Below are positions 7,829 through 59,412 of a DNA stretch of 64,000 bases, piece by piece (the stretch's first letter is position 1; each line of letters starts with the position of its first letter). Where the stretch lies: the NCBI GenBank assembly GCA_938003925.1, contig CALKWQ010000016.1, positions 16,363-80,362 of the forward strand, in the 5' to 3' direction. This stretch comes from an uncultured bacterium (GTDB taxonomy: Bacteria > Patescibacteriota > Patescibacteriia > Patescibacteriales > UBA12465). The notes beneath the pieces are model-generated. The model was given only the letters and a program-made list of their open reading frames with translations. It was not told where the DNA came from and ran no database searches. The translations under genes were made by a program, and so were the position numbers.

Positions 7829-7850
7829 TAAGCTAATAAAGGAGATGAGC

Positions 7851-9053
7851 ATGAGTTTGCATGAAAAAATTAAGAATTTAACTAAGTATGGTACAGCCTT
7901 AGAAGTTCCTATGGCTACAAAGGAGCAAGGTCTAGACCATTATAAGCGCGCTTGTGATATGGGTATGACTTTATGGCAGTATTTTGAGCTAATTAACCCT
8001 TCAAAGCCAGGTGATACATTATCAGCTTTTGATCGTCAGTTACAAGCAGCTGGCATCATTACAAAGTCTGATGTTACTCGTGGCTTATTTGCATCAACTG
8101 GTGAGTACTTTTTCCAGTCTGATCGTCCAGGTTCAGCTATTCTTTTCCCAACTTTACTACAAAAAACTGCTCTTTGGGCTAAAATGAATCAAGTGGCTGA
8201 TATTAATAAAATTGTAGCCACTACTCGCACAATTGCTGGTACATCCAGCTACCAGTCACTGTTTATTGACGATTCAACTATTACTAATGGCCCTGGTCGT
8301 CATTTCCGTGTTGATCAACGTGGTAAGTTTCCTTCCGTTAAAATTGGCTGGAGTGAGTCAGCAAATGCTGTGACTAAGCATGGTGTTCAGTTAGATTGGA
8401 CATATGAGTTTGTTCGTAGAGCCTCTATAGAACTTATGTCAACTGTAGTGGCTCGTATTATGCTGCAAGACCAGCAAGAACTATTTAATGAGGCCATTAA
8501 TGTAGCCATTAATGGTGATGGTTCTGTTGCAAATCCAGCAGCAGTTGTTAAAAAATTCCGTACTGCTGGCACTGTTGGAGCCAATGATATTAAGCTAGAT
8601 ACAGCTACTGTAGCTGGTGAAATATCTTATGAAGGCTATTTAAAGTTTATTGGTGGGTTTAAACCATATAACATTAATGTTATTGTGGCCAACACTAATA
8701 CTTTGACTAAGCTTATTCTAATGGCCAAGCCTAATGTAGATCCTCTTGCTGTTATTACTACACTGCAAGAACCAAAATCACAAGGTACAGCCATGATGGA
8801 CAATTCAGTGCAAAAGCTATTCCCTAATGTAACATTCTATCCAGCAGATAATATGGCTGATAATGTTCTTTTAGGAATGGATACACAGTTTGCGCTAGAG
8901 CGTGTAATTGAGTTAGGCTCTGATCTACAAGAAGTATCTCGTGTAATTGAAAATCAGACTGAAGCTATGGTATTATCAATTGCTGATGGAGTATCTAAGA
9001 TTTTTACATCAGCTATGCAAGTCCTTGATTTTAGTGCAGCTCCTTTGACCTAA
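7851..9053 (+). CDS. major capsid protein
   Basis: 400-aa ORF after the scaffold and cement genes, with the highest local GC and a 13-bp GC-rich terminator after it. I prefer the ATG at 7851, because GGAG at 7841-7844 directly abuts the track start at 7845. Confidence 0.7.
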   Translation: MSLHEKIKNLTKYGTALEVPMATKEQGLDHYKRACDMGMTLWQYFELINPSKPGDTLSAFDRQLQAAGIITKSDVTRGLFASTGEYFFQSDRPGSAILFPTLLQKTALWAKMNQVADINKIVATTRTIAGTSSYQSLFIDDSTITNGPGRHFRVDQRGKFPSVKIGWSESANAVTKHGVQLDWTYEFVRRASIELMSTVVARIMLQDQQELFNEAINVAINGDGSVANPAAVVKKFRTAGTVGANDIKLDTATVAGEISYEGYLKFIGGFKPYNINVIVANTNTLTKLILMAKPNVDPLAVITTLQEPKSQGTAMMDNSVQKLFPNVTFYPADNMADNVLLGMDTQFALERVIELGSDLQEVSRVIENQTEAMVLSIADGVSKIFTSAMQVLDFSAAPLT

Positions 9054-9131: not shown

Positions 9132-9728
9132 ATGAAGCTAGGAGAAGTTAATGATTTAGGTTTTGGTTTTTGTGCTAAGTGTAAGGACTGGAAAGAACTA
9201 CCGAGTCTACATCCAGCTGATAAAAGAAAGCCTAGAAAGGAACGGAGAAGAGTTTGTGGAAAATGCTATGCGGCATTACAAAGAACTTCTGAACCGTTCT
9301 TCTTTGCAAGAAAGGCTATATCAGCGCATAAATCTATGGCTAAAGAAGGTGATTACGGCTTAAAGGACATAAAAGAGTTGCATAAATGGCAAGCTTTTCA
9401 TTGTCCATACTGTAATGATCCAATACATTATAATTTTACTATAGAGCATATTGTTCCTAGAGAAGAAGGAGGTAGAAATATTTTAAGTAATATTCTACTA
9501 ATATGTTCAAAATGTAACTCTAGTAAGCAGGATATTGAAACAATTCATTGGTTAGAAAGAAAAAGCTTTAAAATAAAGCCTAAATTTTTACTAAAAATTA
9601 AAGGAGCTTATGATGAGCACGGATTCGAGTTCAAAGCCAGCTGTAGCAACTGCCTCGGCAGCAGTAACAAAAGCATCTGCAGCAGTAACACCACAGGTCC
9701 AACAAAAGTCTGTATTACCAAAGTATAA
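9132..9728 (+). CDS. HNH endonuclease
   Basis: HNH core is HCPYCNDPIHYNFTIEHIVPREEGGRNILSNILLICSKCNSSKQD. The N-terminus has CxxC pairs (CAKCKDW, CGKCY). Confidence 0.85.
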   Translation: MKLGEVNDLGFGFCAKCKDWKELPSLHPADKRKPRKERRRVCGKCYAALQRTSEPFFFARKAISAHKSMAKEGDYGLKDIKELHKWQAFHCPYCNDPIHYNFTIEHIVPREEGGRNILSNILLICSKCNSSKQDIETIHWLERKSFKIKPKFLLKIKGAYDEHGFEFKASCSNCLGSSNKSICSSNTTGPTKVCITKV

Positions 9729-9908: not shown

Positions 9909-10445
9909 ATGTTTCCTACTAAGCCCAATTTTCAACCGATAACTTCAAATTCAGACCGTGAAAAACTATTCGGTAAGATAGAGTATATTTCTGCGCCTAT
10001 AAAAGGTAATCCAGAAAATATTTCTATTAAAGGGGATTGGGCTAGAAAAAATTTGTGTATTATAGACTTACCACAATTAATAGGAATTCAAGGCGCGCCT
10101 AATTCTGGTAAAATTCAGTGTCATATAAAAGTAGCTGATTCTATTAGATTTTTATTTTCTGAATTAGAAACATTAGGTCTATTAGATGATATACACTCAT
10201 GGGGCGGAATGTTTAATCCTAGATTCATACGTGGTAGTAAAACAGTTTTATCAAATCATGCTTACGGTACCGCTTTTGATATTAACGCTCAGTGGAATCC
10301 TTTAGGTAAAGAGCCTGCTGCAGAAGATACATTAGGATGTGTATATAAGATAGTTCCAGTGGCTAATAAGCATGGCTGGTATTGGGGCGGGCACTATTCA
10401 AAGCGTAAAGATGGCATGCACTTTGAATACGTGTATAGGGGTTAA
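9909..10445 (+). CDS. endolysin, peptidase M15 (VanY / L-alanyl-D-glutamate peptidase type)
   Basis: Zinc-binding signature SNHAYGTAFD (SxHxxGxAxD) plus DGMHFE (DxxH). Confidence 0.85.
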   Translation: MFPTKPNFQPITSNSDREKLFGKIEYISAPIKGNPENISIKGDWARKNLCIIDLPQLIGIQGAPNSGKIQCHIKVADSIRFLFSELETLGLLDDIHSWGGMFNPRFIRGSKTVLSNHAYGTAFDINAQWNPLGKEPAAEDTLGCVYKIVPVANKHGWYWGGHYSKRKDGMHFEYVYRG

Positions 10446-10446
10446 A

Positions 10447-10740
10447 GTGAAAAGTAAAATAAAAGATGTTGTAACAACTAATAATGATAGAATATCACAG
10501 TCAAAAATATGGGCTAATATAGGCAGTGCTGTAGCAACTTGGGCATTTATTTACATAACACTTCATGATAAAATGACCTGGGAAATATTCTTTGCTTATC
10601 TTGGTACAGTAGCCGGATTTACCCAAATTAGTAAATGGTTATCTTATAAATATGGAGGTCCACAATATGTGGACAATAGTGATAGAGTTAGCAAAAAAGA
10701 TATTGATGCCAAGTCAGATAAATTCGAACCAGGTGACTAA
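10447..10740 (+). CDS. holin (two transmembrane segments)
   Basis: GTG at 10447 has AGGGG 5 nt upstream and sits just after the endolysin stop. The TMDs are IWANIGSAVATWAFIYITL and WEIFFAYLGTVAGFTQI, followed by a charged C-terminus. The track start at 10372 lies inside the endolysin gene. Confidence 0.6.
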   Translation: MKSKIKDVVTTNNDRISQSKIWANIGSAVATWAFIYITLHDKMTWEIFFAYLGTVAGFTQISKWLSYKYGGPQYVDNSDRVSKKDIDAKSDKFEPGD

Positions 10741-10741
10741 T

Positions 10742-11110
10742 ATGGATCCTACTAGTATTGGACTATACTTATTAAAAAAATACTGGTGGGTACTAGTATT
10801 ATGCTGTTTTGTAATTTATACCTTTAGTTTAAAAAGCACAATATCTGATAATAATAAAACTATAAATAATCAACTAGCTACTATAGCTGTATTGCAAGCT
10901 GATATTTTGAGTTTTAAGTCAAAGATCGAAGCCCAGAATAAAGCTATAGATGAGCTAACACAAAAAGGAAAGGAGCAGGCATCAAGGCTAGAGTCTGCAA
11001 TAGCTAGAGTCAATGCTATGAAACCTGCTACTCAGGTAATTATTCGTGAGATATATTCAGACAAAACTAAGGATATTGAGCAGCTTTTGCTTAATGCTGT
11101 TAATGACTAG
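10742..11110 (+). CDS. i-spanin (inner-membrane spanin subunit)
   Basis: ATG at 10742 has AGGTGA 5 nt upstream. The protein has an N-terminal TMD (YWWVLVLCCFVIYTF) followed by a coiled coil. Confidence 0.65.
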   Translation: MDPTSIGLYLLKKYWWVLVLCCFVIYTFSLKSTISDNNKTINNQLATIAVLQADILSFKSKIEAQNKAIDELTQKGKEQASRLESAIARVNAMKPATQVIIREIYSDKTKDIEQLLLNAVND

Positions 11111-11357
11111 TTGTTGTTCTATATGTCCTCCGAAGTATATTGATAGACCAGTTGAAGTTAAGATACCAGTACCAGCTGAATGCAAAGTACCACCAGTTAT
11201 TGAACCAATAACTGATCCGTATAAAAAAGTATTAAAAGGTATGCTGGTAGAGGATATGATAAAAGATTTAAGAGCATCTAGAGTATTATGGCGTGAAAGA
11301 GCACTTAGCTTAGAGATTTTGCTTAATGCTTATAGACCTGCTAAAAAGGATAACTAA
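11046..11357 (+). CDS. o-spanin (outer-membrane lipoprotein subunit), overlapped architecture
   Basis: It starts inside the i-spanin gene in another frame. The signal peptide MRYIQTKLRILSSFCLMLLMTSC ends in a lipobox-like LMTS|C. The mature part is Pro-rich. Confidence 0.65.
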   Translation: MRYIQTKLRILSSFCLMLLMTSCCSICPPKYIDRPVEVKIPVPAECKVPPVIEPITDPYKKVLKGMLVEDMIKDLRASRVLWRERALSLEILLNAYRPAKKDN

Positions 11358-11806
11358 TGGAACTACAGATAGAATATCCACTAGATTATATGCAAGATCT
11401 TTATGCACTACTAGGTGTGTCTAGTGATGATTTATCTGAGGATGACATTATTACATTACCATTTGCTGGCACAGCAGAATTAAACCTAATTGAACTGGTT
11501 CCTAATGCTAAGGCTATATTAGAAGATACAGCTACTGCTGAAAGTACAAAAATTAAACTAACTATAGCTTTTATAAATCTTATTGCCTATTATGTATACC
11601 CGTCATTAAAGACTAAACTATTATATTCTGAATCTGACAATAAGACAATAGGCACTAGGTTTAAAGATGCGTTGTCTAGAGATAGAAATGAATTTAAAGC
11701 TGAAGCCATTAGACAGATATCTTCTACTGGTATTAGTTCTACTATTTCTGGTTATAGTTTATTTGAAGTAGTAACACCGGCTATAGACGTAATTTCAGGT
11801 GTATAA
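11357..11806 (+). CDS. putative head-tail connector/adaptor protein
   Basis: 149-aa acidic ORF, TAATG-coupled to the o-spanin stop. Called from its position between the head and tail genes. Confidence 0.35.
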   Translation: MELQIEYPLDYMQDLYALLGVSSDDLSEDDIITLPFAGTAELNLIELVPNAKAILEDTATAESTKIKLTIAFINLIAYYVYPSLKTKLLYSESDNKTIGTRFKDALSRDRNEFKAEAIRQISSTGISSTISGYSLFEVVTPAIDVISGV

Positions 11807-12387
11807 TGATAGCAAAAATAGCGAATAAAGAATCTAGCTATTTAGAAGCTTATGACTTACAGAATAATAGGCATAAGTTAAAGGTTTTAAATTTTACTGC
11901 CGCAGGAGCTAGAACATCTAAACTAGATAGACAATGTGTGGTTCCAATTAATTCTACTGTTATAGAAGGCACAGAATTAAAGTTGACTAATGATACTACT
12001 TTAGTAGTATCATTTAAAGAAGCTGACTGGTATAAAGGCAAAATAATAAGATATATCTTAGACTGCATAAATACTAATCAAATAGTTGATGTTTATAGAA
12101 ATACGCTTAAAAAAAGCTCACAAGGTGGATTAAGCAAGCAAGAAGAAGTCAAAATATATACGGCTATACCAGTTAAAGTAGGACTATATGACACAGCAGA
12201 GTCAAAAGAATCAAATATTATTATACCAAAGTATGTAATGTATTTATCAAAAAGATATGAGCTATTATCAGGTGATAGAGTAGTTATTAGTGATACTACA
12301 TTTGAAGTAGCAAAAGTTAATAGTTTCATGCATATTACGCCAGGCCTAATGGAAGTAAGATTTGATAAGGACCCTAGATGGCTATAG
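11806..12387 (+). CDS. putative head-closure / head-tail joining protein
   Basis: TAATG-coupled to the upstream gene. The C-terminus LSGDRVVISDTTFEVAKVNSFMHITPGLMEVRF fits the small beta-barrel pattern of head-closure proteins. Confidence 0.35.
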   Translation: MIAKIANKESSYLEAYDLQNNRHKLKVLNFTAAGARTSKLDRQCVVPINSTVIEGTELKLTNDTTLVVSFKEADWYKGKIIRYILDCINTNQIVDVYRNTLKKSSQGGLSKQEEVKIYTAIPVKVGLYDTAESKESNIIIPKYVMYLSKRYELLSGDRVVISDTTFEVAKVNSFMHITPGLMEVRFDKDPRWL

Positions 12388-12875
12388 TTAAACTTAGAGG
12401 TAAAATTAGGCTAAGAGCAAGTATAGCTAGCCTAAAAGTATTAAATAATAAGCAAAAACATGCTATAATAACAGTAGGCATACCTGGTTCTGGTAAAACT
12501 ACGTGGGCTGAACAGCAACAAAATTATGTAAATCTAAATCTAGATGACTTTAGAGAAAAAATATCTGGTAATGCTGCTGACCAAAATATTAACAAATTAG
12601 CTGTTGAAATGCGTGATGCTTTTTTAAAAAGAGCTATAAAAAAGCAACAAAATATAATTTTAAGCGACACTAATATAAATCCTTTTTTCAGAGAAAGATT
12701 AATAGATCAGCTAAAAACAGCTGGTTACAGCATAGAGTTAAAAGTATTTGATATAGCATTAGAAGAGGCCTTAAAACGTAATGCCAACAGAAGTAGAAAT
12801 GTACCAGAAGAAGTTATTATACGTATGTATAATCAATTAAAGGACCAGAATATACATGGATCCAGCAATAAGTAG
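12378..12875 (+). CDS. polynucleotide 5'-kinase, T4 Pnk kinase-domain homologue (no phosphatase domain)
   Basis: It aligns by eye with the T4 Pnk N-terminal domain at four points: GIPGSGKTTWAE (P-loop), NLDDFREKI, IILSDTNINPFFRERL, and KVFDIALEEALKRNANRSRNVPEEVIIRMY. No DxDGT phosphatase motif is present. Confidence 0.8.
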   Translation: MAIVKLRGKIRLRASIASLKVLNNKQKHAIITVGIPGSGKTTWAEQQQNYVNLNLDDFREKISGNAADQNINKLAVEMRDAFLKRAIKKQQNIILSDTNINPFFRERLIDQLKTAGYSIELKVFDIALEEALKRNANRSRNVPEEVIIRMYNQLKDQNIHGSSNK

Positions 12876-13317
12876 TATATCAAATATTTTATTATCTGTA
12901 GAAAAACTATTATGGGAGGTTATAGCCTGGCCAAATCAAGAGCTACTAATTAACAAGAATGACTATATGGCTAGAATTGAAGAGTTACAAGAAGCTAGAT
13001 CAGGTATTTTATGGAACGTTGAAGCTGTAGAAATGACGCATCACTATTCAGCAGAATTACAAGTTGGGTGTTCTACATTTCAAGACTTTGGTAATAAAAA
13101 ACTGTATAAATTAACTGATTGTATAAAATATTTATTAGACTCAACACTGTATATCCCAGTATACGACTATAGCCAAACTAATCCTGAATATTTTGAAATA
13201 AATAAGCTTGTTATAACTGGGCCTATAAAGTGGCTGCCTATATTTACTGAAGTTAATGAGTTTAAAACTAGTATGTTTATAACCAAAATTAAGTATGCTC
13301 AAACAGGCTTTAGATAG
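12856..13317 (+). CDS. hypothetical protein (possible tail terminator/completion, by position)
   Basis: 153-aa ORF overlapping the kinase gene by 20 nt, immediately upstream of the tail tube gene. Confidence 0.35.
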   Translation: MDPAISSISNILLSVEKLLWEVIAWPNQELLINKNDYMARIEELQEARSGILWNVEAVEMTHHYSAELQVGCSTFQDFGNKKLYKLTDCIKYLLDSTLYIPVYDYSQTNPEYFEINKLVITGPIKWLPIFTEVNEFKTSMFITKIKYAQTGFR

Positions 13318-13337: not shown

Positions 13338-14255
13338 ATGGCAACAGATTTAATGATTGGTATTATGAAGGCCAGTATTAATGGTGGATCTATAGGTTCT
13401 TTAAAGAGTGGCTCATTGACACTTAAGCCACAGTATAAAGAGCATAAGTCAGGATTTCCTCAAATTACTGACATTAAGGTTCCAGAAATTATTACTGGTA
13501 CATTTAAGTTTGACTGTGAGGAAATTGGTTTAATTAAGGGCCATGCTGGTGCAGGTGTGGCTGCGCTTGGTTCTGGTGTTCCTTATAATGTTGATGTTGA
13601 TTGTGAGGCACCAACAGCACAAGGTGGTGCGTTTAAAATGACAGGCTCTGGTTATATTAAGGGCGTATCTGGTCAAGTAAACGCTAATGACTTTGGTGCA
13701 ATGTCAATTGAAGTAGACTGTGTTCCTATGGGTGGATCTAACTCTGCGCTTATTAGTTTCACTAATATGGCTGGGCCAGGATCAAATACAATTGCTGCAC
13801 CTAACTATAGTCATCAGGCTATTACATCAGATTCAGATAACTTAGCTTTTGGTACCCCAACAGTTAATGGTAGTAATTGTCGTTCATTTAACTTTAATGC
13901 AACAGGTAACTTTAAATACCATACTTCTGGATTTCCACCAGTTATTGACTTAGCTATTATGGAATCAAATGAGTTTACTCTATCTGCTGAATTTGAAGAT
14001 CCTTCAGCAGGCTTATTAACAGATGCATTAGCTGCTTTAACACCAGGTAATCTACCAGTAACCGGTAAAACCGTAGCTGGTATCTACTCAATTATTGGTG
14101 GTACTGACGTTACAGTGACTCTAAAGAATGCCATGGTTGAACCTGACTTATCATTTAACCCTGGTAATGATTGGAATGGTGTAACGGTTAAATGTACTGC
14201 ATTATTACCAAAAGGTACATTACCAACAGCTGGTTGGGCTATGGAAATAGCATAA
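13338..14255 (+). CDS. major tail tube protein
   Basis: It follows the canonical order tube, chaperone, frameshifted chaperone, tape measure. It has a strong RBS (aaaggaggaagcaaaATG) and a 13-bp terminator hairpin after it. Confidence 0.65.
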   Translation: MATDLMIGIMKASINGGSIGSLKSGSLTLKPQYKEHKSGFPQITDIKVPEIITGTFKFDCEEIGLIKGHAGAGVAALGSGVPYNVDVDCEAPTAQGGAFKMTGSGYIKGVSGQVNANDFGAMSIEVDCVPMGGSNSALISFTNMAGPGSNTIAAPNYSHQAITSDSDNLAFGTPTVNGSNCRSFNFNATGNFKYHTSGFPPVIDLAIMESNEFTLSAEFEDPSAGLLTDALAALTPGNLPVTGKTVAGIYSIIGGTDVTVTLKNAMVEPDLSFNPGNDWNGVTVKCTALLPKGTLPTAGWAMEIA

Positions 14256-14270
14256 TTTGCTAAATATAAT

Positions 14271-14303
14271 ATGCGGATTGTAATAAAATGTTACAATCCG
14301 CAT
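14271..14303 (+). terminator. intrinsic terminator-like hairpin after the tail tube gene
   Basis: ATGCGGATTGTAA-taaaatg-TTACAATCCGCAT forms a 13-bp perfect stem, followed by gttattat. Confidence 0.65.
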
Positions 14304-14422: not shown

Positions 14423-14998
14423 ATGGAGAAGTTAGCTGCTGGTAAATTTGGTATTACGCTTTCTGGAGAGGCACAGACAGTCGTAATTACATTTGGCTTA
14501 AGAAGTGATATATTACGTCTTATAACTAAAGCACAATTAGAGTATCGTAGCTTGTCTGCTAAAAGTATGTTACCTACTGAGATGAGAGCTAAACTAGCTG
14601 AGCTAGTAGAAACGTTAGACGCAGAAAGAGCTAAAGAAGAAAAAGATGAAGCACGTATTACAGAACTTCAAAACCAGGTAAATAAACTATATGAAGATTC
14701 TATTAAGATTATAGACGATAATAAGGATAAGCTCATTGAAGAACTTGCCTTAGGCTCTATAGATTTAACAGATAGTCTAATTGCTGACATTTTATCACTA
14801 GTGCTTACAAAACGTAATGATAAAGGTGAAGTAATAGGAAAAGTCTCTAAGGATGATATTTTATACGGCGCTCAGTTTGCTAATGATGGTGATGAGTTAC
14901 TTCAGTTAATTGAAGGTGTAATGCTATATTTAACTGACACACTAAAAAAAATTCAAGTAGTGAACCAAATGCTGACCAGTCTCGTAAAGAACGACTAG
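14423..14998 (+). CDS. tail assembly chaperone (gpG-like)
   Basis: 191-aa acidic helical ORF between the tail tube and tape measure genes. RBS is aaaaggagagtaaaATG. Confidence 0.65.
   Translation: MEKLAAGKFGITLSGEAQTVVITFGLRSDILRLITKAQLEYRSLSAKSMLPTEMRAKLAELVETLDAERAKEEKDEARITELQNQVNKLYEDSIKIIDDNKDKLIEELALGSIDLTDSLIADILSLVLTKRNDKGEVIGKVSKDDILYGAQFANDGDELLQLIEGVMLYLTDTLKKIQVVNQMLTSLVKND
14944..14951 (+). promoter_or_regulatory. slippery A8 run: programmed -1 frameshift (or transcriptional slippage) site
   Basis: The site reads C-TA-AAA-AAA-AT in frame 0. The -1 frame is open from 14950 straight into the 15082..15312 ORF. Confidence 0.6.
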
Positions 14999-15312
14999 CG
15001 GCTATTAGAAAGGCAAAAGGCCTACCTGAACCAGATGAGTCTAAAGATATAGAACTCACTATTTATGATTTAATACAAATTATGTGCAATAGTAATCCCC
15101 AGGTAGAACTAAACACTATCTGGGGTTACACACAGGAGGAGATTCTTCATCGTTGGGATATATGGAAGAAATTTGATATAGTAACTAGAATATTTGGTCC
15201 AGGAAAAAAGGAACAAGATGAATCACAGACCCCGGTAAATACTAATGCTACAATGTCTGCATTAGCCAATTTATTCGGGCCTAATTTTATGCAAAATCCA
15301 AGTGAGGGCTAG
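14950..15312 (+). CDS. -1 frame extension of the tail chaperone (gpGT-like C-terminal part)
   Basis: I translated the -1 frame by hand from 14950 (NSSSEPNADQSRKERLAAIRKAKGLPEPDESKDIELTIYDLIQIM...). It has no stop until 15312. The predicted fusion is about 296 aa. Confidence 0.6.
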   Translation, partial: NSSSEPNADQSRKERLAAIRKAKGLPEPDESKDIELTIYDLIQIMCNSNPQVELNTIWGYTQEEILHRWDIWKKFDIVTRIFGPGKKEQDESQTPVNTNATMSALANLFGPNFMQNPSEG

Positions 15313-15313
15313 C

Positions 15314-18300
15314 ATGGCAGCTAATAATTTTTCTAACAGTATTAAAGGCCTAGAGAACCTAGATAAAGAATCGTTACCTAGCAATGATCAGGCAATAGTT
15401 GATGTTACTGGTGAAGCCAGTATAAACGCTAGTGATGTTTCTCTTTTACTTAAACCAACTATAGACCAAAGGGCCTTTAAAGATGCTACTGATCAAGTAG
15501 AAAAGCAAGTAGCTTATATAAATAGGCTAATGGCTAGTGCTGGTCAAAAATCTGAAATTGGTAAAAAAGGCACGTACACATCTACAGCTGGCTTTGAACA
15601 AATAAACGCGGCTATGGCCCAGTTTAGTCAAACTGGTGACTATAGTAGCTTCACTACTGAATTAAAGAAACAGTTGGAAGTAGGAAGAAAAAAGTCTGGT
15701 AGTGAAGCTATGCGTAAGGCGGCTATAACAGCCGCTAAACAATTTAATACATTAACTATAGACGTAGAGAATACCTTTAAAGAGGGTGGTATTACAGGCG
15801 ATATACTGTCTATATCTAGTAAGCACAGTCAAGATAGTTCACCATCAACTATGATAAGAACAGACTATAAGAAACTTATAGCCTCTAGTATAAAGTATTG
15901 GGCCAATATTGGTAATCAAGCTAATGTAGAGTTATTAAAACAAGTAGAAGCTGGTCTAGACCAAGGCGCTAGCGAAGCTAGAAATGGTAATCCTAACTAT
16001 AGACTTGTTAATGCAGCTCAAATGCGTAGTGGTATAGTAAGCACTATTAATAGTAATCCTACCGCTACGCTACAAGGGGTTAACTTTTCTACTGATATTC
16101 AAAAATTAGTAAGTTTTATTGGAACTAAAAGCAAGGCAAGTACTTCAGCTTCAAATGCATTGTTAGGTGGTGTTAGTTTAGACCAGCAATTTATGAAGTA
16201 TTTTGGTCTTACTGATTTTACTCCTGGTAGATCAGTAACCCATATGGCTGACTTATTAGGCCTATTACCTAAAGTTTCTAAAGCACATGAAGGCGGATGG
16301 GACGTTGAAGTAACTGAACAAATAGGCGCTATTATACATTCATTAAGTGAGTATGAAAAAGGCCTAGCTGCCGGCAATACATCTATTCCACCAGTTGTTA
16401 AAAGTCTTAAAAGTAGACTTTCTCAGCCATCAGTTAGATCAGCATATCAGGGCAGAGTAATAGCTACTAGTGCTTTACAACACTTAAATCAAATAGCTAT
16501 AGGTAGTATACCGACTACAGAAGCTGCTGAAGAAAAGGCGTATAACCTAGTAAAAAATGTTTCTGCACAATCAGTAGGAAAATTAGTAGATTTTACTAGC
16601 CCAGAGTATAACTTACCTGCTACTAGTATATCTGATAGTCAGAAAGGTCTAGTTAAACAACAGCTAAGTGTATCTAGAGCAAAAGTGGCTAGTAGTGATT
16701 TATTTGATATAAGTCCAGATAGTGAAGGTCTAGAAAAGTATGCTATGCTACAAGCTGCTGCTCTAGTGCATCAATTAAGTGGCATAAAATATACAGATAA
16801 ACGTACACTTAGTCCTGATGATCAGGTTGGTATAGTTTCTGATGCGCTTTATAATAGATTAAATAGTGACTTTTCTCATAAGTTAAGAGATACTAATGGA
16901 CAAATTCATACAGGTGTTAGTGAGCATATAGACCTAGATAAAATAGTTTCAAATATAGATGGTCTATTAGTTAATAATGGTAAATTTACAGCGAACGCGT
17001 CTGGAGTAGGCACTCCTGATGCTACAGCTTTTATAGTTAACGCTGTTAAAAACGCTATATTAAGAGGCATAAATTCTGACCTAAAAATAGGTGGAATTGA
17101 TAATATAGCTTTAGATAAAACAGACTCTAGTCTTCCTAGAGAAGTGTTTCCAACACAAAGTGCTAAAAAGACAGATAATATTAGGCGTGATGTTGGCTTA
17201 AAGGCAGTATCTAAATTTATTCTTAGTAAAATTGGTACTGATGGTGAGCTAAATCTAAGCTCTGATAAGCTTGTTAGTGAAACTAGAAGACACATAGAAA
17301 ATGGTTTTTTTGAGCGAGATGAAAAAGAAGAATTAAGTAAGCCTACAACTGATAATGTTAATGCACTTACCGCGTATAAAGACTATGTTAGTAAGCTTAA
17401 TATAGCTAGGGGCTCAAATTATGAAAATACCTCAGCCCCAATAGACTACTTAACTAAGCATGGCTATAGTATAGTTAAACCACGTGAAGCCGGTGAAAAT
17501 GCTAATTATGAACATAGTGGTATACTAGGCCAAATGGAAGGACATCCAGATCTATTAGCTCATAGAGTGGTGCCTAAGCTAGATGGTAGCCTAGAACGAA
17601 GATACTTACTACCAGACATAAAAAGTCCTAATAAGCTACCAAAATCATTTAGTGATGTAGAAAATGATAACTATAGTCGTGAGTGGATAGCTCAAATAGT
17701 ATCGTATGCTCAGATGCTACCAGAGTCTATACGTAATTTTTTAGACATAGGCATATTAGCTGGTAAACCAAATGAACCAGGTAGTGAAGTTCTAGTTACT
17801 AAGCCATATAATGAGTTAGTTAAAAATCCAGTATGGGCAACATTAGTAGAAGAATTACATAAAGTAAAGGTAGGATCTGCAGCACATATAACATCATTAC
17901 CAAACAATATGTTACCAGCTGGCCCAGTACTTCAGGCAAACATAACAGCTGATGAGCAGAATAATGTTAATAGACTAATTAATGAAAGAAACGATATTGG
18001 CCCAAAATATGTTGAAAAATTAGTAAATTTGGCTAATAGGCGTGATGGTGCTTCTCAAGGTAGTTTAATATATGAGTATACTAAGCAAAATGTAACAGGT
18101 GGAGATAGCTTAAAATCAATAATAGATAGCATGTACAATGAGCACATATTTGGTCAAGTTAGTAAGGACCAATTTGCTTCTAATAGTTTATCTCTATTAC
18201 TAGAGGCCATAAATGTTCCAAAAGACAAGCGTAAAGATACTATCTTAGATAAATTAACAGGCAACTTTAGCCCAAACGAAACAATACAAAATAGACTAGT

Positions 18301-21300
18301 TGGTTTAGAGGTACAGGAAAAGCCTGATGCTCAACCTAAAATTTCTAAAATTACTAATGAGCAACTAAGAAAATACTTTAATAAAATGTCTAATAGCATA
18401 AATGAATTTTGGGCTGGGGCATTTGCTTCTGATGAATTACAGGGGAGAAAAGTATCAAATAAGTATGTTAAAACTCTTAATATAGATGTTGCAAATCAGG
18501 CTAGTTTACCAGGGGCTTTAAGCTTTGAAGACGCAGAACGTAGGGCTCGTATAGAAAAATCTCTATTAGCTGGCTATAATAGAGCAGACCTAGATGCACA
18601 AAATTTAGTATTTAGCGCAGAGGCTAAGAAAGCTGCTATAGGGACTTCAGGCGGCTCTAACTATTTACATACAGGTATAGCTCCTAATTATGCTAAAAAA
18701 TCAACTGATGGAGAAATAACTTATGAGGAAAGTATTGCTGAGGCTATACAGCGAAAGCAATACTATGCTACTCAACTTGACACATTTAAGGGTTCTAGTT
18801 CTACTTTTGATATACTTAATAAATTAAAGACTAAGGAAGACACTAAGCGTACATCAGACATAGCCGCAGAATTAAATAGAGTGCTTAGTCTACAGCATGC
18901 ATTTAATGAGTCTAATGAAGCTGATAAAGGAGCAACAGGTTTTCGATATGCTAGAGCATATCGTAGATTAGCGAACTTTAATGAGCCTAATATACTTAGT
19001 ATGGTTAGAGCTCCAGAAGATATGTTTAAGGATATGCCTGAATCATTTAGTACATCTTATGCAGAAGCTGCCAATAATTATAGTATTAACTCTCGTAGCT
19101 TTGTACCTACTAGCATTCAAAATAGTGATGAATTCTTAAAAAAATTAGAATCTAGAAAGAATAAGCTTTCATTAGATTCACAATTAAATAGATATATAGC
19201 TAGCTATATATCAGAAAATGAAGACACAAATCTTGAGCTTATTGGAACAAAATCAGACATAGCCAGTAAGCAAGAGGTAGAGGCTAAGGCTATAGCAAGT
19301 TTCTTGCAAAAGTACCAAAAACAGCCAGAAAAACAATCTGATGATCCAGTGTTATCTAATATACTAGCAGAACGTACAGACTTAGCCGATAAACATCAAA
19401 ACAATTTACAGAAACAGTTTAGAACAGCTGATACATTCGGTTTAAGCACAGAAAATTTAAGCCAGATTATTTCATCAGCTTCTACACTTTCATCTATTGG
19501 AGAGTTTAGCTCTATAGGCTCATATCTTGAAAAAGATATAATAGACTTTTCTGGTTCTAAACAATTAGCTCAGTTAAAAACAGCGGCTAATCTAAAACAA
19601 ACATCAAAATTATCAGGATCAGACTATCAACGGCAATTAGAAAATTATGCATCTAGTATAGCTGATCAAATAGCTGGCTTATTAGGCAACTCTAGTATTA
19701 TTGATTCTAAGACTAGTGGTAGTTTATACTCTACAGGAAGGAATGCTGAATCGGCTATAGCTAGATACACAAGTCTTAACTCATATATAGAACAAAAAGA
19801 ATTATTAAAACAGGAAGTAAGCCAAGATGACTATGAGTCTAGAGATAGGCTTAAAAAAGAGTTAAGTAGTTATAGAACAGATTTTGAAACGTTAGCCGAT
19901 CCTTCTGTTAGACTTACAAGCTTAAAAGATAAAATTATAACAAGCGATAGTTTACAAGTTTTTAAGCCAAGCTATATAGCTGATAAAGCCGATAGACTTA
20001 GTAAGTTACAAGATATGTCGTCAAGTTTACGCCTAGCTGTCGATCAGGGCGATATGTCTACTACACCTGAACTGTTAGATAATTTTGTATCATTACACAA
20101 GTTGTATAAAAAATCAGGATTAGACTATACTAAAGGTGGCTTAACTATAAGTGATATAATGTCACAGTATGACACTAGTAAGTCTATTTCTTCAAATTTT
20201 GGTGTAGATGGTGAACTAACTAATAAAGGTAACCAGTTTGTAGTAGCTTCACAAACACTTAAGTCTAGCTCTAGCGGAGCTAATAAATTTGATGCACTAA
20301 TAACAAAAGAAAAAGCAGCTTTAGCCGCAGTTAGAGAGCTTGAATCAGCTTTTACAGCAATAAGTAATCCTGACTTAGGTAAAATAGAGTCAGAGTTTAG
20401 AAACCTTTTAGAGACCATAAATGCAGATACTACGGCTCTATATAAACTGGAAGAAGCTAAAAAAGCAGCTGGAGGAAAACTATCAAGTCAAGACGAAAAT
20501 AAACTGGCTATTGGAAAAGAAAGAGTGCAGGCTAATATAACTACTGCACAAGAACTAGCTGAAAAAATGAAGCAAAAAGATAGAACAAAGGGCTTAACAG
20601 AAGCTGATTGGAAAGCTCAAGTAAGAGACGCTAGCCTAGAGCGTGAAGATCAGAAATATAGTCTTAGATCTAAAGCAACTAATCTTAATGCACTTATAGA
20701 CTCTGGTAAAGTTGGTAGCTCAAACAGATATAACGCTACACACGCGGAATTTGAAGAAGCAATAAGATTAGCCAAAGAGTTAGAAAGTCTCGGAGTAAAA
20801 ACTGGTCATGATAATAAAACTTCATTTGGTTTATACTCATCATCACAGCTTGAAACAATGATGAGCAATAGTGGCCATAGAGGTAAGCAACACTTAAGTT
20901 TTACTGAAGGCTTAGTAGATCAAGCAGCATGGAAAATGCAGTTTGGTGGTGCTGGCGTTGTATTAGGTGGTTTAAGCGCGTTAACTGTTGGAGGCTTTAG
21001 CGAAGCAAAAAAGTTTGAAGAGGACATGAAAAATGTTGAGCTAGTATCACAAGCTTCAACTATTCAATTAGATCAGCTTAAAAATAAAGTAGTAGAGTTA
21101 TCTACTACTTTCACTAATACTCCAGCTCAGCTTAGTGATGGTTTAATAATTTTAGGCCAAGCTGGTTATAAAGCTGCTGAATCATTACAGCTTCTAGGCC
21201 CTATAGCTCAACTAGCTACAGCAACAATGTCTGATTTAAAACAAGCTGCTGATATTACAACAACTGTTTTAATGTCATTTGATAAGCCAGTGGCTAATGC

Positions 21301-24300
21301 TGCTGAAGTAACTAATACATTAGCTGCAGCTACAATAGAATCTAAGTTAGAACTATCATCTTTAGGTACTGTACTAAACTATGTAGCTTCAACCGCACAT
21401 ACAGCTGGTATGTCACTTGAAGAAACTGAAACAGCTATGGGTATCATGTCTAATGCTGGTGTTAAAGCATCTACTATTGGTACTTCATTACGTAGCATTT
21501 TAGGTACATTAATAGCACCTACTGCTGCATTTAATAATGAATTGGCTAGAATAGGCTTAACAGCAGACGATGTAAATCCACAGATAAATTCAATGTCTAC
21601 TATTTTACAAAGGTTACATTTTAAAGGCTTTAATGTAGAGAATGCATACCAAGGTCTTGATAAAAGAATTGCCGGTAATATATCTACTTTAATGGCACAA
21701 GCTGATCAGTGGGATAGCTTCCAGTCTAAGATTACAGGTACTGATACTGCTGAAGCTATGGCCTATGGGCAAATGGATACATTTGGAGCTCAGTCTAAAA
21801 GACTAAGTAATACTTTTGATACTACTAGAATAGGTCTAATGTCTGGTGCTCTAGAGCCACTCAAAACTGCGGCTATGGCATCAAGTGAAGTATTAGAACT
21901 TATTGGCAAAGCTGCTGAAACTTCTACAGGTAAGGCTATAACTAGCTTCGCCACTACTGGTTTAGCCATAGGTAGTTTTATATCTATTTTAGGTGGTTTA
22001 AGATCAGCAGGATCTACTATACTTCCAGCACTAGGTGATGCAATTAAAGGCTCAGCTGCCCAGTGGCTTATTAGACCTACTGGTGATACTACGTCTAATT
22101 ATTTTAAAAATAAAACACAGTTTGTTTCAGCTGATAGTAATTTAGGTAAAATACTTAATACAACAACTGATATAAATAAACTACCAGTTAGTCAGCAAAG
22201 AATGCATCAAACAATAACATCACTTGGCGGTATGGCTTTTAATCTTCCTACATTAGCTATAACTGCTGGTCTTGGCTTAGCATGGGCTGGGTATAGCTCA
22301 TGGAAAGATTCTGACTTACCTGGTTTAGGAACTGGTAAAAATAGAATGATTGAGTCTAAAAGAAGCGCTGATAACCTTTCTGGATATATAGCAACCCTAG
22401 AAAAAGCTTCACAACAGCAGCGTAAATTAGCTCTATTTAACAGGGGTGAAAATTCTAGTAGTACAAGGGCTTTTGATGAAATGCTTATTAATACTGGAGT
22501 ATTTGCTAGTGTAAATGAATTAGGACAAACAGTAACGGCGGGCTATAAGTCAAATAAAGATATGGGAATTTTAAAACTGGTAAAGTCTAGGGATAGTATT
22601 GATCTAAAAACTTCACTTAGTATGGCAAAAGATGTGCAAAGAACTAAAACTTCAAAAGAAGAAATAGACTCAATGTTCAATTTTGCGCAAAAAAGTTATG
22701 ATACGGATAAAGAAGCTATTTCAGATGGTGGTAGACAAGCTTCTACCATGGTATCCGATTTGGCTATACGTAAATTAAAACGAGAAGGAAAATTTTATGA
22801 TGTAGACGCAGTTTTAAAAGAGGCAAATAATGCAGCACCAGGTGGAAGTCAGATGGCTCAGAGTATTAGAAATAATATACTGGCTGCGCATGAAGAGGCT
22901 ATGACTGTGCCTAATATGAGAGAGTCTAAAACTAGCCAAGCTCAAGATGCATATAGAGAATTACAGAGAATTGATGAAGATATTAACTTATACTCTTCTT
23001 TATTGAGTGGTAAACAGTTAAACGAAGGTGAGTCTAAGAGGGCTAAGAGTGTATTGCCTGAAAGGGCTAAGGCTTTTTTAAAACCAGTTATGAGTGATGA
23101 AAAATTTTCAAAAGCAATAGCCGAAGGCGGTTCATTTAATTTATTATATAAGCATGCGCTAACAGGGCTAGAAAAAGATGGTGATACTGATAAATTCTTT
23201 AATGCTATGCAAGTAATTGCAGCTGGTAGTGGATCTGCTAAAGGTACTAATATAAGAAAAGAATTTTCAGATGATCTTACACGTGTCCTATCTAAAAAAG
23301 GCTCTCAAGAAAGAATGGATGAATTAGCTAGACTAGGTAAAGATGCTGTATTTGAATCACCAGAAAAAATAATGGATAGATCAACATATTCTGAGTCTAG
23401 AACTAGGTTTATACAAGAAGGTACTTTTAAACTAGATAGATTTATTAACGCTAATGAAAAGCTAAAAGCTGCAAAATCTAAACAGTCTAGTTTAACAGCC
23501 GGTACACAGGAATATGATGTAGCTAGTAAAGCTGTAGAAGAGGCAAGGTCTTTATTAGAACGTCAAGAAGCAGAATTAAAACCATTCTTAACAGATAGTT
23601 TTAGATTTATGCTGCCTAATACAAATGATTCAAATAGAAAGTTTTTACAAAAAACTAGAGGATCCATTGGAATTGTTGGCTCAATGGGGCTGTCTAGTTT
23701 ATCATCTGATCAATATGATGATTTTGCTGAAAAAATGGATAAGCTTAGAGTAAGGCATGAGGAAACATTAAACCAAGATATAGTTAAAGGTAATATAAGT
23801 ATAAAACGTAAGGTACAGTTACAATATGAACTAGATGTAAAAGATACCTTACATGAAATGATTCTAAATGCTAACAAAGATGTATTTAAATACTCTGAAC
23901 TAATAGGTAGTAGTATTAAGCAGTCTATGGAGGCTTCCATAGGTAGTAAAACTCTAAAATTAGATTTTTCAAAGGTAGAAACAGATATAGAAGCCAGCAA
24001 TACTATTAGTAATATGAAGCTAGCTGGTAGATCAGTTGTTTCTAGAACTCCAGCTAATTATTTAGAATTTAAGAGTAATAGCTACAACAGCTTAATGCAG
24101 TCACCTATTGATAGCCTAAATATTCCTAAGTTTAGCCAAGATGCTATTTACCTAGTATCTACAGATGCTCAGGTAGAAAAGCTAAATAATAATCTGCGTA
24201 CAACTCTTGATATTCTAAACGAGACAAAAACTAGTCTAGCTATTACAAAAGCTCAAGATATTAGCAGTCTTGCTAATATTAATGATTCTGACTTAAGCAG

Positions 24301-27300
24301 ACAAAAGACCCTAGATCTTGAAGAAAAATACATTAATGGTAGAATAGAGGCTAATCAACGGGCTTTTAGTTCTATTAAACAAATATTAGAAGAAGAGATA
24401 AGACTAAGGGATCAGCTAGTAGATAAGATAGCAAAGGCAAAAGATGCACAAGCTGAGTCAACAAGAGACATTAGAGAGGTGTCTAAATCTTTATACAAAT
24501 CTGCTGGTATTGATGTAAGTGAGGATCCTAAAAAATTATTAGATAGCTTAAAAGCTAAAGAACAAGAGTATAATAAAAGAGTAGCTGGAGGTGATGTTGA
24601 AGGAGCTAATAAAATTATAAGCTCAATGAAGTCTGATGAAGTAAAAGAGCTAACATCAGGTCAATACGCAAATTACTATGTAAAAGAAGCTGGAGATATA
24701 TTTAGTAGAATGGAGAAAAAGCAGCCTGAGTTATATAACAATTATACATCAAATTTAGTAGAGAGAACTAATGCATCAAATAATACTTTAGATAGTGCTA
24801 GAGGTGATCTGGCTAAATTAATTTCAGACAGCATTCAACTAGCTAAGGATAAAGGTAGAATAAATGATGAACAAGCTTCAATATATAAAGATAAGTTTGT
24901 TAAACGCTTAGAAGCTAATAGTGGTAATCAAGAAATTGCCTCTTCAGTATTTACTGATTTTGCTAAGACACCAGTTTTACAGGAAAAGATGTCTGAAGGT
25001 ATGAATATAGAAATTATATTTAAACACTTAGCCGATGTTATTGGTACATCATTAAATCCTACAATAGACAAAGCAACTGAAGAACTTAAAAAGTTTATAA
25101 CTCAATTAAATAGCTTTGTGCCTATGTCTAAGCAGTCATTGAGTGATGTTACACCAACTGAGCAGGACGTAACTAAACTAATAGGTAATGATGCTGCAGA
25201 GGCTTTAGGTATTGGCAGCTTTAAAATGCCTAGGCTAATAGCAGAAAATAAACATAATAATGTAGATGGTTGGAATACTGGTAATGAGATACACTATACA
25301 GATAAAAAATCATTAATACATGAATTAATACATTCTAAAATAGCCTCTGAGGGTAAGCAATTTAAAGGCAATTACGCAGAAAAAGAGCTTGCTGAAGAAT
25401 TTGAAGTTAATAAAAGAATGGTACAGATGGGCCAACTTAATAGGTCTGATGTAGAGGATAGATTTGGCTTAGGACTTGATGCTGATTCTTCAAACCTTTC
25501 TTCTGAGCAGCTAAATAGCTTAATGGGCTCTAGGGCTAGTAAGCAGTATGCACAAAAAACTAGATATTCACTTAATGATGAAGTACTAGCTAATTATAAT
25601 AGTCAACCCCAATGGAAAAGAACTACATCTAATGTAGTTCACACGGTACTGCCGGCAGTTTCAGCAACTATAGGAGGTTTAGTCGCTGGCGCAGCAGCCA
25701 CACCAGAAACATTTGGAGTAGGTACAGTACCAGCTGCTGCAGCTGGTGGTGCTTTAATGTATGGTGCTGGTAAACAAGGGTCTAAACTGATAGATAAGTA
25801 TGTATTAGGCCTACCTGATAAGGAACTACCAAAATTCAACAATCCTATTATTAATTCAGCGTATGAGGCTACGTACGATGTGGCAGAAGGCGCGGCTATG
25901 GAAGCTGGTGGTGTTCTTATGGCAAAAGGATTAGAATATGCCAGTCCATATGCCATTAATGCTACTAGAGCTATTGCTAAACTAGGAAAATCTAAGCAAA
26001 AAGTTAGTGTTAGTAATAATAGCTTAACATCTGCGCAATATGTTCATACAAGTGGTAGACCTATAGCTGAACTTAATCAGGATAGTACTCTGTTTGTATC
26101 TCCGATAGATAATATAGAAGCTTCTCTAGCTAGGTTAAATAGTGGAACCGCTATAACTTATGGCGTGCGTGCTGAAAAATCTGCTAATATATTTGATATA
26201 ACTAATATGGCTAATAGAAAAAAGTTTATAAAAGCCTATGTAGAGGCCAATAAGAATGAATATCCAAATATGTCTAAAAAAGAGCTAATGCCTAAGCTTA
26301 GAGATAAAGCTGCAGAAATATTTGATGGAGCAAATACTACTATTAATGGAGAACTGAAGCATGGTGAAAAACAAGACTTTCAGTACTTAGAAGATGGCAG
26401 CCATGAAATATTACCTACTATTAGACGTACTTTAGACCACTTAGGTGCCGATGGTTTAAAAATGAAAGACGCAGGTAATCCGGCTATAGCTATATTTAAT
26501 AAACACAAGTTTAATGTAACTGGACCAAATGGAACAAAAGTTCCAATTATGGGAGAAGAAGTACCATTAAGAAATATATTTGAAACACCAGTAGAAGCTG
26601 TAGCCTCACAAATAAAAAATAATAATCCTGCATATAGATTTAATGCAGACCCAGTTTTAGGCATGTATGATTCAGTAAAAAATATTTCAACTCCGGCTAG
26701 ATGGGCCAAACTTAGATCATTATCACCAGCAAGAATGATGAAAAACTTAACTGGTGAAGAAGCAGTTAAAGCATCGGCGTATGCAACAACAAAATTAGCC
26801 CTAGCATCCTCAGTTGGAGGTGGTAGTCAATTATTTAACTCATTAATTATGACTACTGATAAAAAAGAGCCAGCTAAAACTATTGAGCAAACAATAGCTG
26901 AATCAAAAGAAAATTCAACAGGTATATCTAATGAATCTTATGCTAGAATAGAAAAAGCACAAAATGAAAGAGCAGCTTTAGAGTCTAATAGATTAACAAC
27001 TATAGCTAAGAAAAAAGATAGCCGTAATAATGCTTTATATAGTCTAAATCCAGAGGCTGCATCAGATAGTTCAATAAGTGAAATGATGGCTAAATCTAGT
27101 GAACAGCAGACACAGTTTGATATATTTGAGACCAAAGGGGCTACCGGGCTTTCAAAATATCTAAAGAAACAGGGCGCTACAAAATCAGAGATAGCTGATA
27201 GAGTTAAATATGTTGGAGAAATAGTAGAGTCAAGTAAAAATAGTGCCGTTGTAAATAGTGGTATACAGCAATCATCAACACACTCTAATATATCGACTAA

Positions 27301-59226: not shown

Positions 59227-59412
59227 TCATACTTCTATTACCTTGGCTTCAGTTACATCAATTATGTTGTACCAAATAACACATTGCTGATTCATGAGCT
59301 GTAATAAGTCTTTTCTAGCCGCTTCTTCAGCTTTATCTTTAGATCCACTATATAGTCTAGACTGCTTACCATGGTCTAAAGCTTCATATAAAAGAATAAT
59401 AGATATATTCAT
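59227..59412 (-). CDS. hypothetical protein (61 aa)
   Basis: The ORF overlaps the stop of the HD protein gene by 4 nt. Confidence 0.4.
   Translation of the reverse strand: MNISIILLYEALDHGKQSRLYSGSKDKAEEAARKDLLQLMNQQCVIWYNIIDVTEAKVIEV

Follow-up and report, generated by a model that had tools for sequence, protein, structure and literature searches.

A predicted polynucleotide 5'-kinase behind a conserved N-terminal tag in a hypervariable slot between head-tail and tail genes of an uncultured phage

The kinase domain of phage T4 Pnkp (PseT; PDB 1LY1 and 1LTQ) has been dissected by mutagenesis, according to which Lys15, Ser16, Asp35, Arg38, Asp85 and Arg126 are essential for kinase activity, with Asp35 acting as general base, Arg38 binding the 3'-phosphate of the acceptor nucleotide, Arg126 contacting the beta-phosphate of the nucleoside triphosphate (NTP) and Val131, Pro132 and Val135 forming the pocket for the 5' nucleobase (PMC2831316). 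The related modules CthPnk of C. thermocellum (PDB 4GP6 and 4MDE) and Capnocytophaga Pnkp1 are domains of bacterial RNA-repair proteins with phosphoesterase and ligase-type modules or partners (Hen1, Rnl). Two further themes of phage biology matter here, namely polyvalent proteins, which adjoin virion genes, are predicted to be injected and typically contain protein kinases, Pol-beta nucleotidyltransferases (NTases), DdrB-like ParB domains and zeta-like kinases (Iyer, Burroughs, Anand, de Souza, Aravind 2017; PMC5512222), and short targeting peptides, since for capsid targeting, the first 30 residues of P1 DarB suffice, and so does the capsid-targeting sequence (CTS) of T4 IPIII (PMC9024508). 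In the following, a gene is described that appears to touch on all of these. It is located at positions 12378 to 12875 of a 64-kb stretch of contig CALKWQ010000016.1 (the window, by which the whole analyzed stretch is meant), which makes up less than half of a ~145-kb phage genome (an identical protein is recorded on a contig of 144.7 kb), and it encodes a predicted T4 Pnk-type 5'-kinase headed by a 26-aa basic peptide, in the following the tag. The gene sits between a connector-like gene and tail genes in a slot where related phages carry the same tag on a shuffled repertoire of conflict-type domains, suggestive of interchangeable cargo that may be delivered with the virion.

In addition to the window, 10 kb of upstream sequence were read. 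No close DNA relative was found by megablast among 50,697 deposited phages, and identity of the capsid protein to that of any cultured phage does not exceed 28%. For assigning protein families, the non-overlapping open reading frames (ORFs) in the window that encode 50 aa or more were joined as pseudo-proteins and compared with Pfam and/or PHROGs, with four lysis and structural ORFs (9909-11357) scanned against PHROGs only and a 191-aa and a 76-aa ORF (14423-15312) left out. Relatives of the kinase were retrieved with HMMER from 1.84 billion representative proteins, giving 6,117 matches at E < 1e-3, and residue conservation was counted in an alignment of 162 relatives. An AlphaFold (AF2) model of the window kinase was built from 16 sequences. 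The gene and its functional elements are as follows.

12378..12875 (+): tagged, putative polynucleotide 5'-kinase gene, stop codon included; ATG start, 165 aa, from the ORF listing
12367..12371 (+): AAGGA Shine-Dalgarno sequence (ribosome-binding site), 6 nt before the kinase ATG and within the last codons (..DKDPRWL) of the upstream 193-aa gene
12378..12455 (+): N-terminal tag MAIVKLRGKIRLRASIASLKVLNNKQ, residues 1-26, in which hydrophobic and basic residues alternate around an invariant Gly
12456..12857 (+): kinase domain, residues 27-160, predicted P-loop phosphotransferase fold of the T4 Pnk/CthPnk type
12477..12500 (+): P-loop GIPGSGKT, residues 34-41, with K40/T41 corresponding to T4 K15/S16
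12543..12554 (+): D-x-x-R site in NLDDFR, with D56/R59 corresponding to D35/R38 in the T4 Pnk alignment
12663..12671 (+): SDT, residues 96-98 within LSDTNINP, with D97/T98 corresponding to T4 Asp85/Thr86
12777..12818 (+): RNANRSRNVPEEVI, residues 134-147, with R134/R138 corresponding to T4 Arg122/Arg126 and V142/P143/V146 to Val131/Pro132/Val135

Profile, sequence and fold comparisons agree on the nature of the encoded protein. It matches Pfam AAA_33 (E 3e-20, 73.4 bits) and the PHROG 505 profile 'polynucleotide kinase' (1.3e-29), the latter at positions 2-144 of 295 and hence in the kinase half only. Searching the PDB with phmmer gave the kinase domain of T4 Pnk (1LY1) as best match (E 2.7e-15), and full-length T4 Pnkp, Capnocytophaga Pnkp1 (8e-9) and CthPnk (3e-7) were also retrieved. 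The alignment extends over T4 Pnk residues 2-145, with about 31% identity over 130-146 residues, and all motifs which an earlier sequence-only reading of the locus had listed as shared with T4 Pnk were recovered, whereas the T4 insertion holding Glu57 is missing. The AF2 model has a mean predicted local distance difference test score (pLDDT) of 83.5, reaching about 90 across residues 27-160, and when compared with the PDB by Foldseek, ranks 1 to 23 are all occupied by polynucleotide kinases (CthPnk, T4 Pnk, Pnkp1). The top fold match is CthPnk, likewise a compact module of about 170 aa (4gp6, E 1.7e-10, TM-score 0.73, root-mean-square deviation 1.9 Å), and 1ly1 scores 1e-9; O-phosphoseryl-tRNA kinase (PSTK) follows from rank 24 and zeta toxins from rank 42.

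A zeta-toxin-like or other small-molecule P-loop kinase, e.g., an UDP-GlcNAc kinase weakening the cell wall, would be in line with a Pfam Zeta_toxin score of 52.9 bits (cut-off 22.3) and with the occurrence of zeta-like kinases fused to MuF in phages (PMC5512222). However, AAA_33 and PHROG 505 score higher, phmmer against the PDB returned no zeta toxin at E < 1, and the fold match to zeta toxins, at rank 42 or lower, shows an E-value of 7e-6 and 16% identity behind the 23 polynucleotide kinases. Moreover, the T4-specific acceptor residues (R38, D85/T86, V131/P132/V135) all have their counterparts. By ranking and acceptor-site residues, this alternative is ruled out as far as sequence and fold allow and seems scarcely credible. 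The sequence-only reading had named assignment to another P-loop kinase family as a refutation, and the comparisons place the protein with the T4 Pnk-type kinases instead. A search with PADLOC for a homologue in defense systems gave just a P-loop-level match to AriA (4e-4), which was rejected.

All six positions essential in T4 Pnk are filled in the window protein, namely by K40, T41, D56, R59, D97 and R138. Among the 162 relatives, the P-loop Lys and a Ser or Thr at the S16 position are found without exception, the D35 position is Asp in 161 and the R38 position Arg in 160, the Arg126 position is conserved in at least 160 and the Asp85 position in 130, while the base-pocket residues vary more. 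In the window protein, KRNANRSRNVPEEV aligns with T4 R122/R126/V131/P132/V135, with NVPEEV as the base-pocket stretch. Judged by sequence and predicted fold, the protein has all defining features of the T4/CthPnk kinase-domain family, and its assignment as a 5'-OH polynucleotide kinase of this type is highly probable. As its predicted activity, it would move the NTP gamma-phosphate onto the 5'-OH at an end of single-stranded RNA or DNA.

The most informative feature of the protein, overlooked in the sequence-only reading, is the 26-aa N-terminal extension. The tag has no counterpart in T4 Pnk, among the 161 nearest relatives, the 150 best ones included, only P0001 and P0016 align over residues 1-25, and it is missing from all non-syntenic kinase relatives. 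It combines seven Lys/Arg with no acidic residue, and all proteins found in the slot follow the pattern M-A-(I/V)-x-(I/L/V)-(K/R)-G-(K/R)-(I/L/V)-(K/R)-(I/L/V)-(K/R), in which the Gly is invariant; in the non-kinase types, a Pro follows. In a six-frame translation of the window, this pattern occurs once. In the part of the gene encoding the tag, pairwise nucleotide identity is 0.61 at codon positions 1 and 2 each and 0.44 at position 3, so that conservation is lowest at third positions and the constraint is on the peptide rather than on DNA or RNA; a nucleotide-level element was therefore ruled out. A later start skipping the tag was dismissed as well, as no ATG, GTG or TTG occurs downstream of the start at 12378 and before the P-loop, and conservation of the tag at protein level extends over unrelated cargo. 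AF2 leaves the tag unstructured (pLDDT <50 at residues 1-22), and it is predicted to be intrinsically disordered. In three lineages, the slot gene is followed by an ORF of 54-60 aa (L016 5819-6001, L023 3834-3998 and L028 3822-4004) ending in a tag-like, alternating basic/hydrophobic manner (RKIRLKVNFK, RKIKIKVI and KIKLRVTIK, respectively); no such tag-ended small ORF is present after the slot gene in the window.

For surveying the slot, relatives of both genes flanking the kinase were searched and the intervening gene was tabulated, resulting in 24 loci from about 11 lineages. The boundaries in the window are given by the following two genes.

11806..12387 (+): 193-aa protein, left slot boundary; weak head-tail adaptor match (phrog_615, 4.7e-5), alignment A2 and synteny
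12856..13317 (+): 153-aa protein, right slot boundary; 24 homologues, 83% mean column identity in alignment A1

The C-terminus of the 193-aa protein, ..GLMEVRFDKDPRW, is invariant in alignment A2. Both proteins gave no significant match in PDB profile searches, and the 153-aa protein also has none in Pfam and PHROGs; since its gene precedes that of the putative major tail protein, a role in tail termination or completion is probable. This places the kinase between a gene with a weak head-tail adaptor match and putative tail genes, in agreement with the head-tail joining cluster assumed in the sequence-only reading. In all 24 loci, a slot gene is present whose ATG overlaps the upstream gene by the same 10 nt, with the same geometry of ribosome-binding site and start codon, and which encodes the tag first, as an alternating basic/hydrophobic peptide of ~20 aa. 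Kinase orthologues with 98-56% identity occupy the identical position with identical overlaps of 10 and 20 nt. The slot products comprise 161-549 aa and ten architectures, all headed by the tag at residue 1, among which are the following.

Tag + kinase: window, P0001-P0005
Tag + kinase + NTase-like domain + C-terminal domain: P0162 (549 aa), L013 6573-8222
Tag + kinase + HTH_31/HTH_3 repeats: P0016
Tag + Kinase-PolyVal, a Ser/Thr/Tyr-type protein kinase (E 7.6e-22, above the Pfam cut-off): L023-26
Tag + domain with the motif DGH[HQ]RA.LA..LG..IP + C-terminal domain of the P0162 type: L014, L022
Tag + NTase-like domain, no kinase: L027 2797-4011
Tag + domains without family match: L016, L028

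The tag-kinase halves of P0016 and P0162 are nearly identical and joined to unrelated C-terminal halves, which indicates recent exchange of modules. A domain of ~250 aa is common to P0162 and L027, with the head motif VGGTTRSILSGKKYRDLDLV, which can be aligned to the catalytic motif found in class II CCA/A-adding enzymes. This NTase-like match is weak (PDB profile E 0.03-0.3), with the top five hits all being class II CCA/A-adding enzymes at the catalytic head motif; no Pfam match was obtained for the domain in L013 and L027, and two of the three carboxylates are missing in L027. Should the match be genuine, a fusion of kinase and NTase would point to the slot serving RNA-end chemistry. The ParB-like occupants of L014 and L022 showed no Pfam or PDB profile match.

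From these observations, a mechanism can be proposed in which the kinase gene would be co-expressed late with neck and tail genes through translational coupling and the tag would dock whichever domain follows it to the assembling virion. Considering gene position and peptide charge, the docking site would most plausibly be the neck or the packaged DNA end. The kinase would then be carried into the next host along with the DNA and be active ahead of all phage gene expression, the delivered activity in this case being 5'-phosphorylation of single-stranded RNA or DNA ends. As possible consequences, breaks with 5'-OH ends could be made ligatable or degradable, or resealing of the RtcB type could be blocked, and the purpose would be counter-defense or host takeover. 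For loading into the virion by the tag, we put the chances at somewhat below one half, and the combined reading, a polynucleotide kinase in a slot for tag-docked and virion-delivered cargo, is about as likely to be right as wrong, an estimate composed of the high confidence in the kinase and the lower one in the loading step. The suggestion of a late-expressed or even packaged function made in the sequence-only reading has thus gained comparative support by the conserved hypervariable slot, the shared tag and the Kinase-PolyVal occupant, and packaging itself is still something that we infer.

Delivery with the virion is a reasonable reading insofar as it is preceded by the domains of polyvalent proteins (PMC5512222) and by short peptides sufficient for targeting (PMC9024508). 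With the former, the slot shares the neighborhood of virion genes, a rapidly shuffled repertoire and, in L023-26, the Kinase-PolyVal domain, the NTase and ParB likeness being motif-based. In contrast to the 2-15 effector domains of polyvalent proteins, the window kinase has one (P0162 and P0016 from the same slot contain at least two), it lacks a MuF, portal, MPTase or ArdC hub domain, and the slot is diversified by alternative alleles of one locus behind a short peptide instead of domains strung in a giant polypeptide. With a single domain and no hub, the protein is not formally a polyvalent protein, though it may work like one. The T4 IPIII CTS and the P1 DarB N-terminus resemble the tag in being short N-terminal peptides on unrelated cargo, including anti-defense enzymes. 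There is, however, no sequence similarity, the slot tag is strongly basic with a strict alternating pattern and its targeting role is a presumed one, and since the slot gene lies among neck and tail genes, docking may occur at the neck, tail lumen or DNA end and not at the prohead core. More tentatively, as an idea that is possible rather than probable, the tag might be a portable signal for virion loading and delivery, and the slot a single hypervariable effector locus in the neck-gene cluster by which a clade of uncultured ~145-kb siphophages with tape-measure proteins of >4,000 aa exchanges ready-to-inject enzymes, as a single-locus modular counterpart of polyvalent proteins. To our knowledge, such a tagged single-locus cargo slot is new among the themes of packaged effectors, CTSs and polyvalent proteins.

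The arrangement of the gene bears on when and where its product acts. As described in the sequence-only reading, the ORF at 12378-12875 overlaps by 10 nt with the upstream 193-aa ORF and by 20 nt with the downstream 153-aa ORF. The kinase ATG lies 7 nt ahead of the stop codon of the upstream gene, a geometry typical of translational coupling, and the gene appears to be coupled on both sides. A fusion of the 193-aa protein with the kinase by -1 frameshifting was ruled out, as a TAG in the kinase frame (12375-12377) immediately precedes the ATG and the kinase can thus not be a frameshift extension of the upstream protein. No enrichment of promoter or terminator signals separating the kinase gene from the operon was found. 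The ratio of non-synonymous to synonymous substitutions (dN/dS) of the kinase gene versus its orthologues is about 0.10-0.30, indicative of purifying selection, somewhat more relaxed than in both flanking genes (0.03-0.22).

Late expression could also serve an enzyme that stays in the cytoplasm and is not packaged. It would phosphorylate 5'-OH RNA and thereby feed decay by 5'-monophosphate-dependent host RNases or, as a variant, phosphorylate DNA ends during packaging, with the basic tag as a nucleic-acid-binding arm. T4 PNK stimulates host endoribonucleases and mRNA decay after RegB cleavage, as cited from Durand et al. (2012) in PMC9409239. This decay function needs kinase activity alone, the charge of the tag is compatible with RNA or DNA binding, and an HNH endonuclease gene (9132-9728) is located in the same late region. 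Cuts by HNH enzymes and terminases, however, normally leave 5'-phosphates, and a RegB-like endoribonuclease was not identified in the window. Moreover, a cytoplasmic role leaves the fixed neck/tail position and the delivery-type cargo repertoire unexplained. We regard this as the strongest rival, albeit an unlikely one.

Compared with T4 Pnkp, the window kinase shares the fold, P-loop, Asp35, Arg38, Asp85/Thr86, Arg122/Arg126 and the Val131/Pro132/Val135 pocket, but differs in what surrounds them. Its chain ends at residue 165, directly past the kinase fold, and accordingly lacks the DxDxT 3'-phosphatase domain that in T4 also supplies one tetramer interface, as already recognized in the sequence-only reading; with this domain tested for and absent, the protein does not belong to the bifunctional Pnkp class. 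It lies in a neck/tail operon instead of among early genes as in T4, carries the additional 26-aa basic tag and has no linked RNA ligase or tRNA genes in the window. In contrast to CthPnk and Pnkp1, it is free-standing apart from the tag and found in a virion-gene context. As the sequence-only reading had stated for RNA ligase, neither this family nor HAD phosphatases matched any scanned window ORF of at least 50 aa, ARAGORN found no tRNA gene in the 64 kb, and the 10 kb upstream (L011) hold no Pfam-annotated gene. The search for ligase and phosphatase partners has therefore yielded none in the window or in the 10 kb upstream, out of a genome of ~145 kb.

The sequence-only reading called the location of this stand-alone kinase odd, and it is indeed the context, not the missing domain, that is new. 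Among the 161 nearest relatives, 109 are shorter than 210 aa and 40 have a Pnkp-like length of 260-330 aa, so that the kinase-only form is ordinary and such relatives are common in metagenomes. One of these, the untagged P0009, is encoded among non-structural genes. What is unexpected is the slot together with the tag, both clear-cut at the sequence level.

Canonical RNA (tRNA) repair would make the kinase the 5'-healing half of a split Pnkp-ligase pathway, with tag and position incidental and with a 3'-healing enzyme and an RNA ligase encoded in the remaining genome or supplied by the host. T4 Pnkp and CthPnk, members of the same family, act with ligases in RNA repair, and the closest deposited homologues from cultured phages, in Streptomyces phage Circinus and Pseudomonas phage phiPMW, are Pnkps of ~290 aa encoded next to an RNA ligase and tRNA genes in regions that are not structural. 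Some 70 kb of the genome lie beyond the sequence read, and the HD-domain protein listed below, with its faint YhaM-like match, could in principle process 3' ends. On the other hand, RNA ligase, DxDxT phosphatase and tRNA genes are all absent from the scans of the window, the 10 kb upstream add no Pfam-annotated gene, the same tag on unrelated cargo such as a protein kinase or HTH repeats is left unexplained, and one orthologue lacks the catalytic base. Canonical repair thus appears distinctly unlikely. The parallel drawn in the sequence-only reading to the repair of anticodon-nuclease damage by T4 Pnk and Rnl1 finds no support in the window, where no ligase, 3'-phosphatase or tRNA gene was found, in contrast to the two cultured phages named above.

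59409-60131 (-): HD-domain protein (PHROG 5889, annotated as unknown function, 2e-31), faint match to YhaM/Cbf1 3'-5' exoribonucleases (E 0.012)

This protein is the only candidate 3'-end-processing partner for the kinase in the window. It belongs to an early/replication block on the minus strand, which also encodes SbcC, SbcD, a Holliday-junction-resolvase-like protein, ThyX, dCMP deaminase, a dUTPase_2/MazG-like protein and the end of a family-A DNA polymerase.

Several points weigh against the cargo reading. In orthologue P0005 (L001-L003, eight contigs; L001 7701-8186), Asn replaces the general-base Asp (window D56, T4 Asp35), a substitution unique to P0005 among the 162 relatives and accompanied by P143K. 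Because of this missing Asp, catalysis may be dispensable in one lineage, and P0005 may be a catalytically dead, end-binding variant. The survey sample is small, with every relative being metagenomic, and the presence of slot proteins in the virion is a prediction drawn from comparison; no slot protein has a MuF, portal or other known virion-anchoring domain, and the AF2 model gives no indication of a binding partner of the tag. For the neighbors, structural roles follow mostly from position; the NTase label of L013 and L027 is a motif-based lead, and the ParB-like label for L014 and L022 is likewise taken from a motif. Finally, repair partners may lie elsewhere in the remaining ~70 kb of the genome, and the 2',3'-cyclic-phosphate/5'-OH breaks left by anticodon nucleases are beyond repair by a kinase on its own.

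The retention of P0005 on eight contigs despite its lost general base would also suit a structural protein for neck or tail completion, in which the kinase fold has been exapted and the enzymology is vestigial. The slot is positioned where siphophages usually encode a tail-completion protein like gpZ or SPP1 gp16.1. In the gene order of lambda and SPP1, four small genes are usual between the capsid and tail-tube genes, whereas just three non-kinase small genes are present here between the capsid and putative tail-tube genes, and the slot gene is coupled to structural genes on both sides. A structural subunit, however, would not withstand being exchanged for unrelated domains of 161-549 aa, the kinase domain is under purifying selection, and the catalytic set and the acceptor pocket are complete in the window protein and in five of the six orthologue groups. 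Such a structural role is rated as highly unlikely, and the tagged, possibly virion-delivered enzyme is preferred.

The enzyme itself is an ordinary member of a well-studied family, and its setting is the notable part, that is, interchangeable enzymatic cargo at one fixed locus, in every case behind a single short conserved peptide, with the locus coupled to virion genes. If the tag is a loading or delivery signal, a new kind of targeting signal would join those of T4 and P1, injected effectors of metagenomic phages could be recognized by a simple sequence rule, and foreign proteins could be loaded into phage particles by means of a compact handle. If the kinase is indeed delivered, a 5'-kinase without phosphatase or ligase partner could be a useful early weapon, an injected polynucleotide kinase being the first enzyme to meet the nucleic-acid-cleaving defenses of the host, and this would bear on phage responses to host nucleases leaving 5'-OH ends and to RtcB-type repair.

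In the late block surrounding the slot, the order is head protein, HNH endonuclease, lysis ORFs, a 149-aa ORF, the 193-aa ORF, kinase and the 153-aa ORF, followed by tail genes, with a chaperone-like pair between the putative tail-tube gene and the tape-measure gene.

7845-9053: major head protein (phrog_3922, 2e-49)
9132-9728 (+): HNH endonuclease, directly after the capsid gene
9909-11357 (+): lysis cassette with M15 endolysin, holin-like membrane protein and spanin-like ORFs, from the PHROG scan
13338-14255: 305-aa putative tail-tube protein
15302-27925 (+): tape-measure protein of 4,207 aa (PhageMin_Tail, 3.9e-33)

The HNH gene is present in the window, L001 and L002 and missing from the otherwise syntenic L003, L004 and L007, a patchy distribution that suggests a mobile or dispensable insertion. 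The lysis cassette is placed between the major capsid and connector genes and not at the end of the late region, an arrangement kept in relatives; its holin-like protein belongs to phrog_1322, and one of the two overlapping spanin-like ORFs has a lipobox-like LLMTSCC. The tape-measure gene spans 12.6 kb, and its relatives in L001, L004, L023, L027-type contigs and L028 encode 4,030-4,616 aa. At ~0.15 nm of tail per tape-measure residue, this size predicts a tail of about 0.6 micrometers. Near its C-terminal third, the tape-measure protein has an HExxH-like LIHELIH, a motif not recognized by Pfam. In the distal tail/baseplate block, a 588-aa protein (48736-50502, +) contains a subtilase (Peptidase_S8) domain (E 5e-23), and in its giant neighbors of 1,257 and 1,663 aa only Ig-like CHB_HEX_C/Fn3_assoc repeats were matched. 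The 167-nt gap between the end of the tail-tube gene at 14255 and the chaperone-like start at 14423 holds a palindromic hairpin with a perfect 13-bp stem (14271-14303), which may be a terminator or attenuator fixing the tube-to-chaperone expression ratio. Most relatives have a tandem pair of paralogous putative tail-tube genes encoding ~300 aa, as seen at L001 8628-9512, L013 8684-9571, L014 8370-9272, L016 6468-7364 and L023 4459-5358, and the window (13338-14255), L004 and L006 have the second only.

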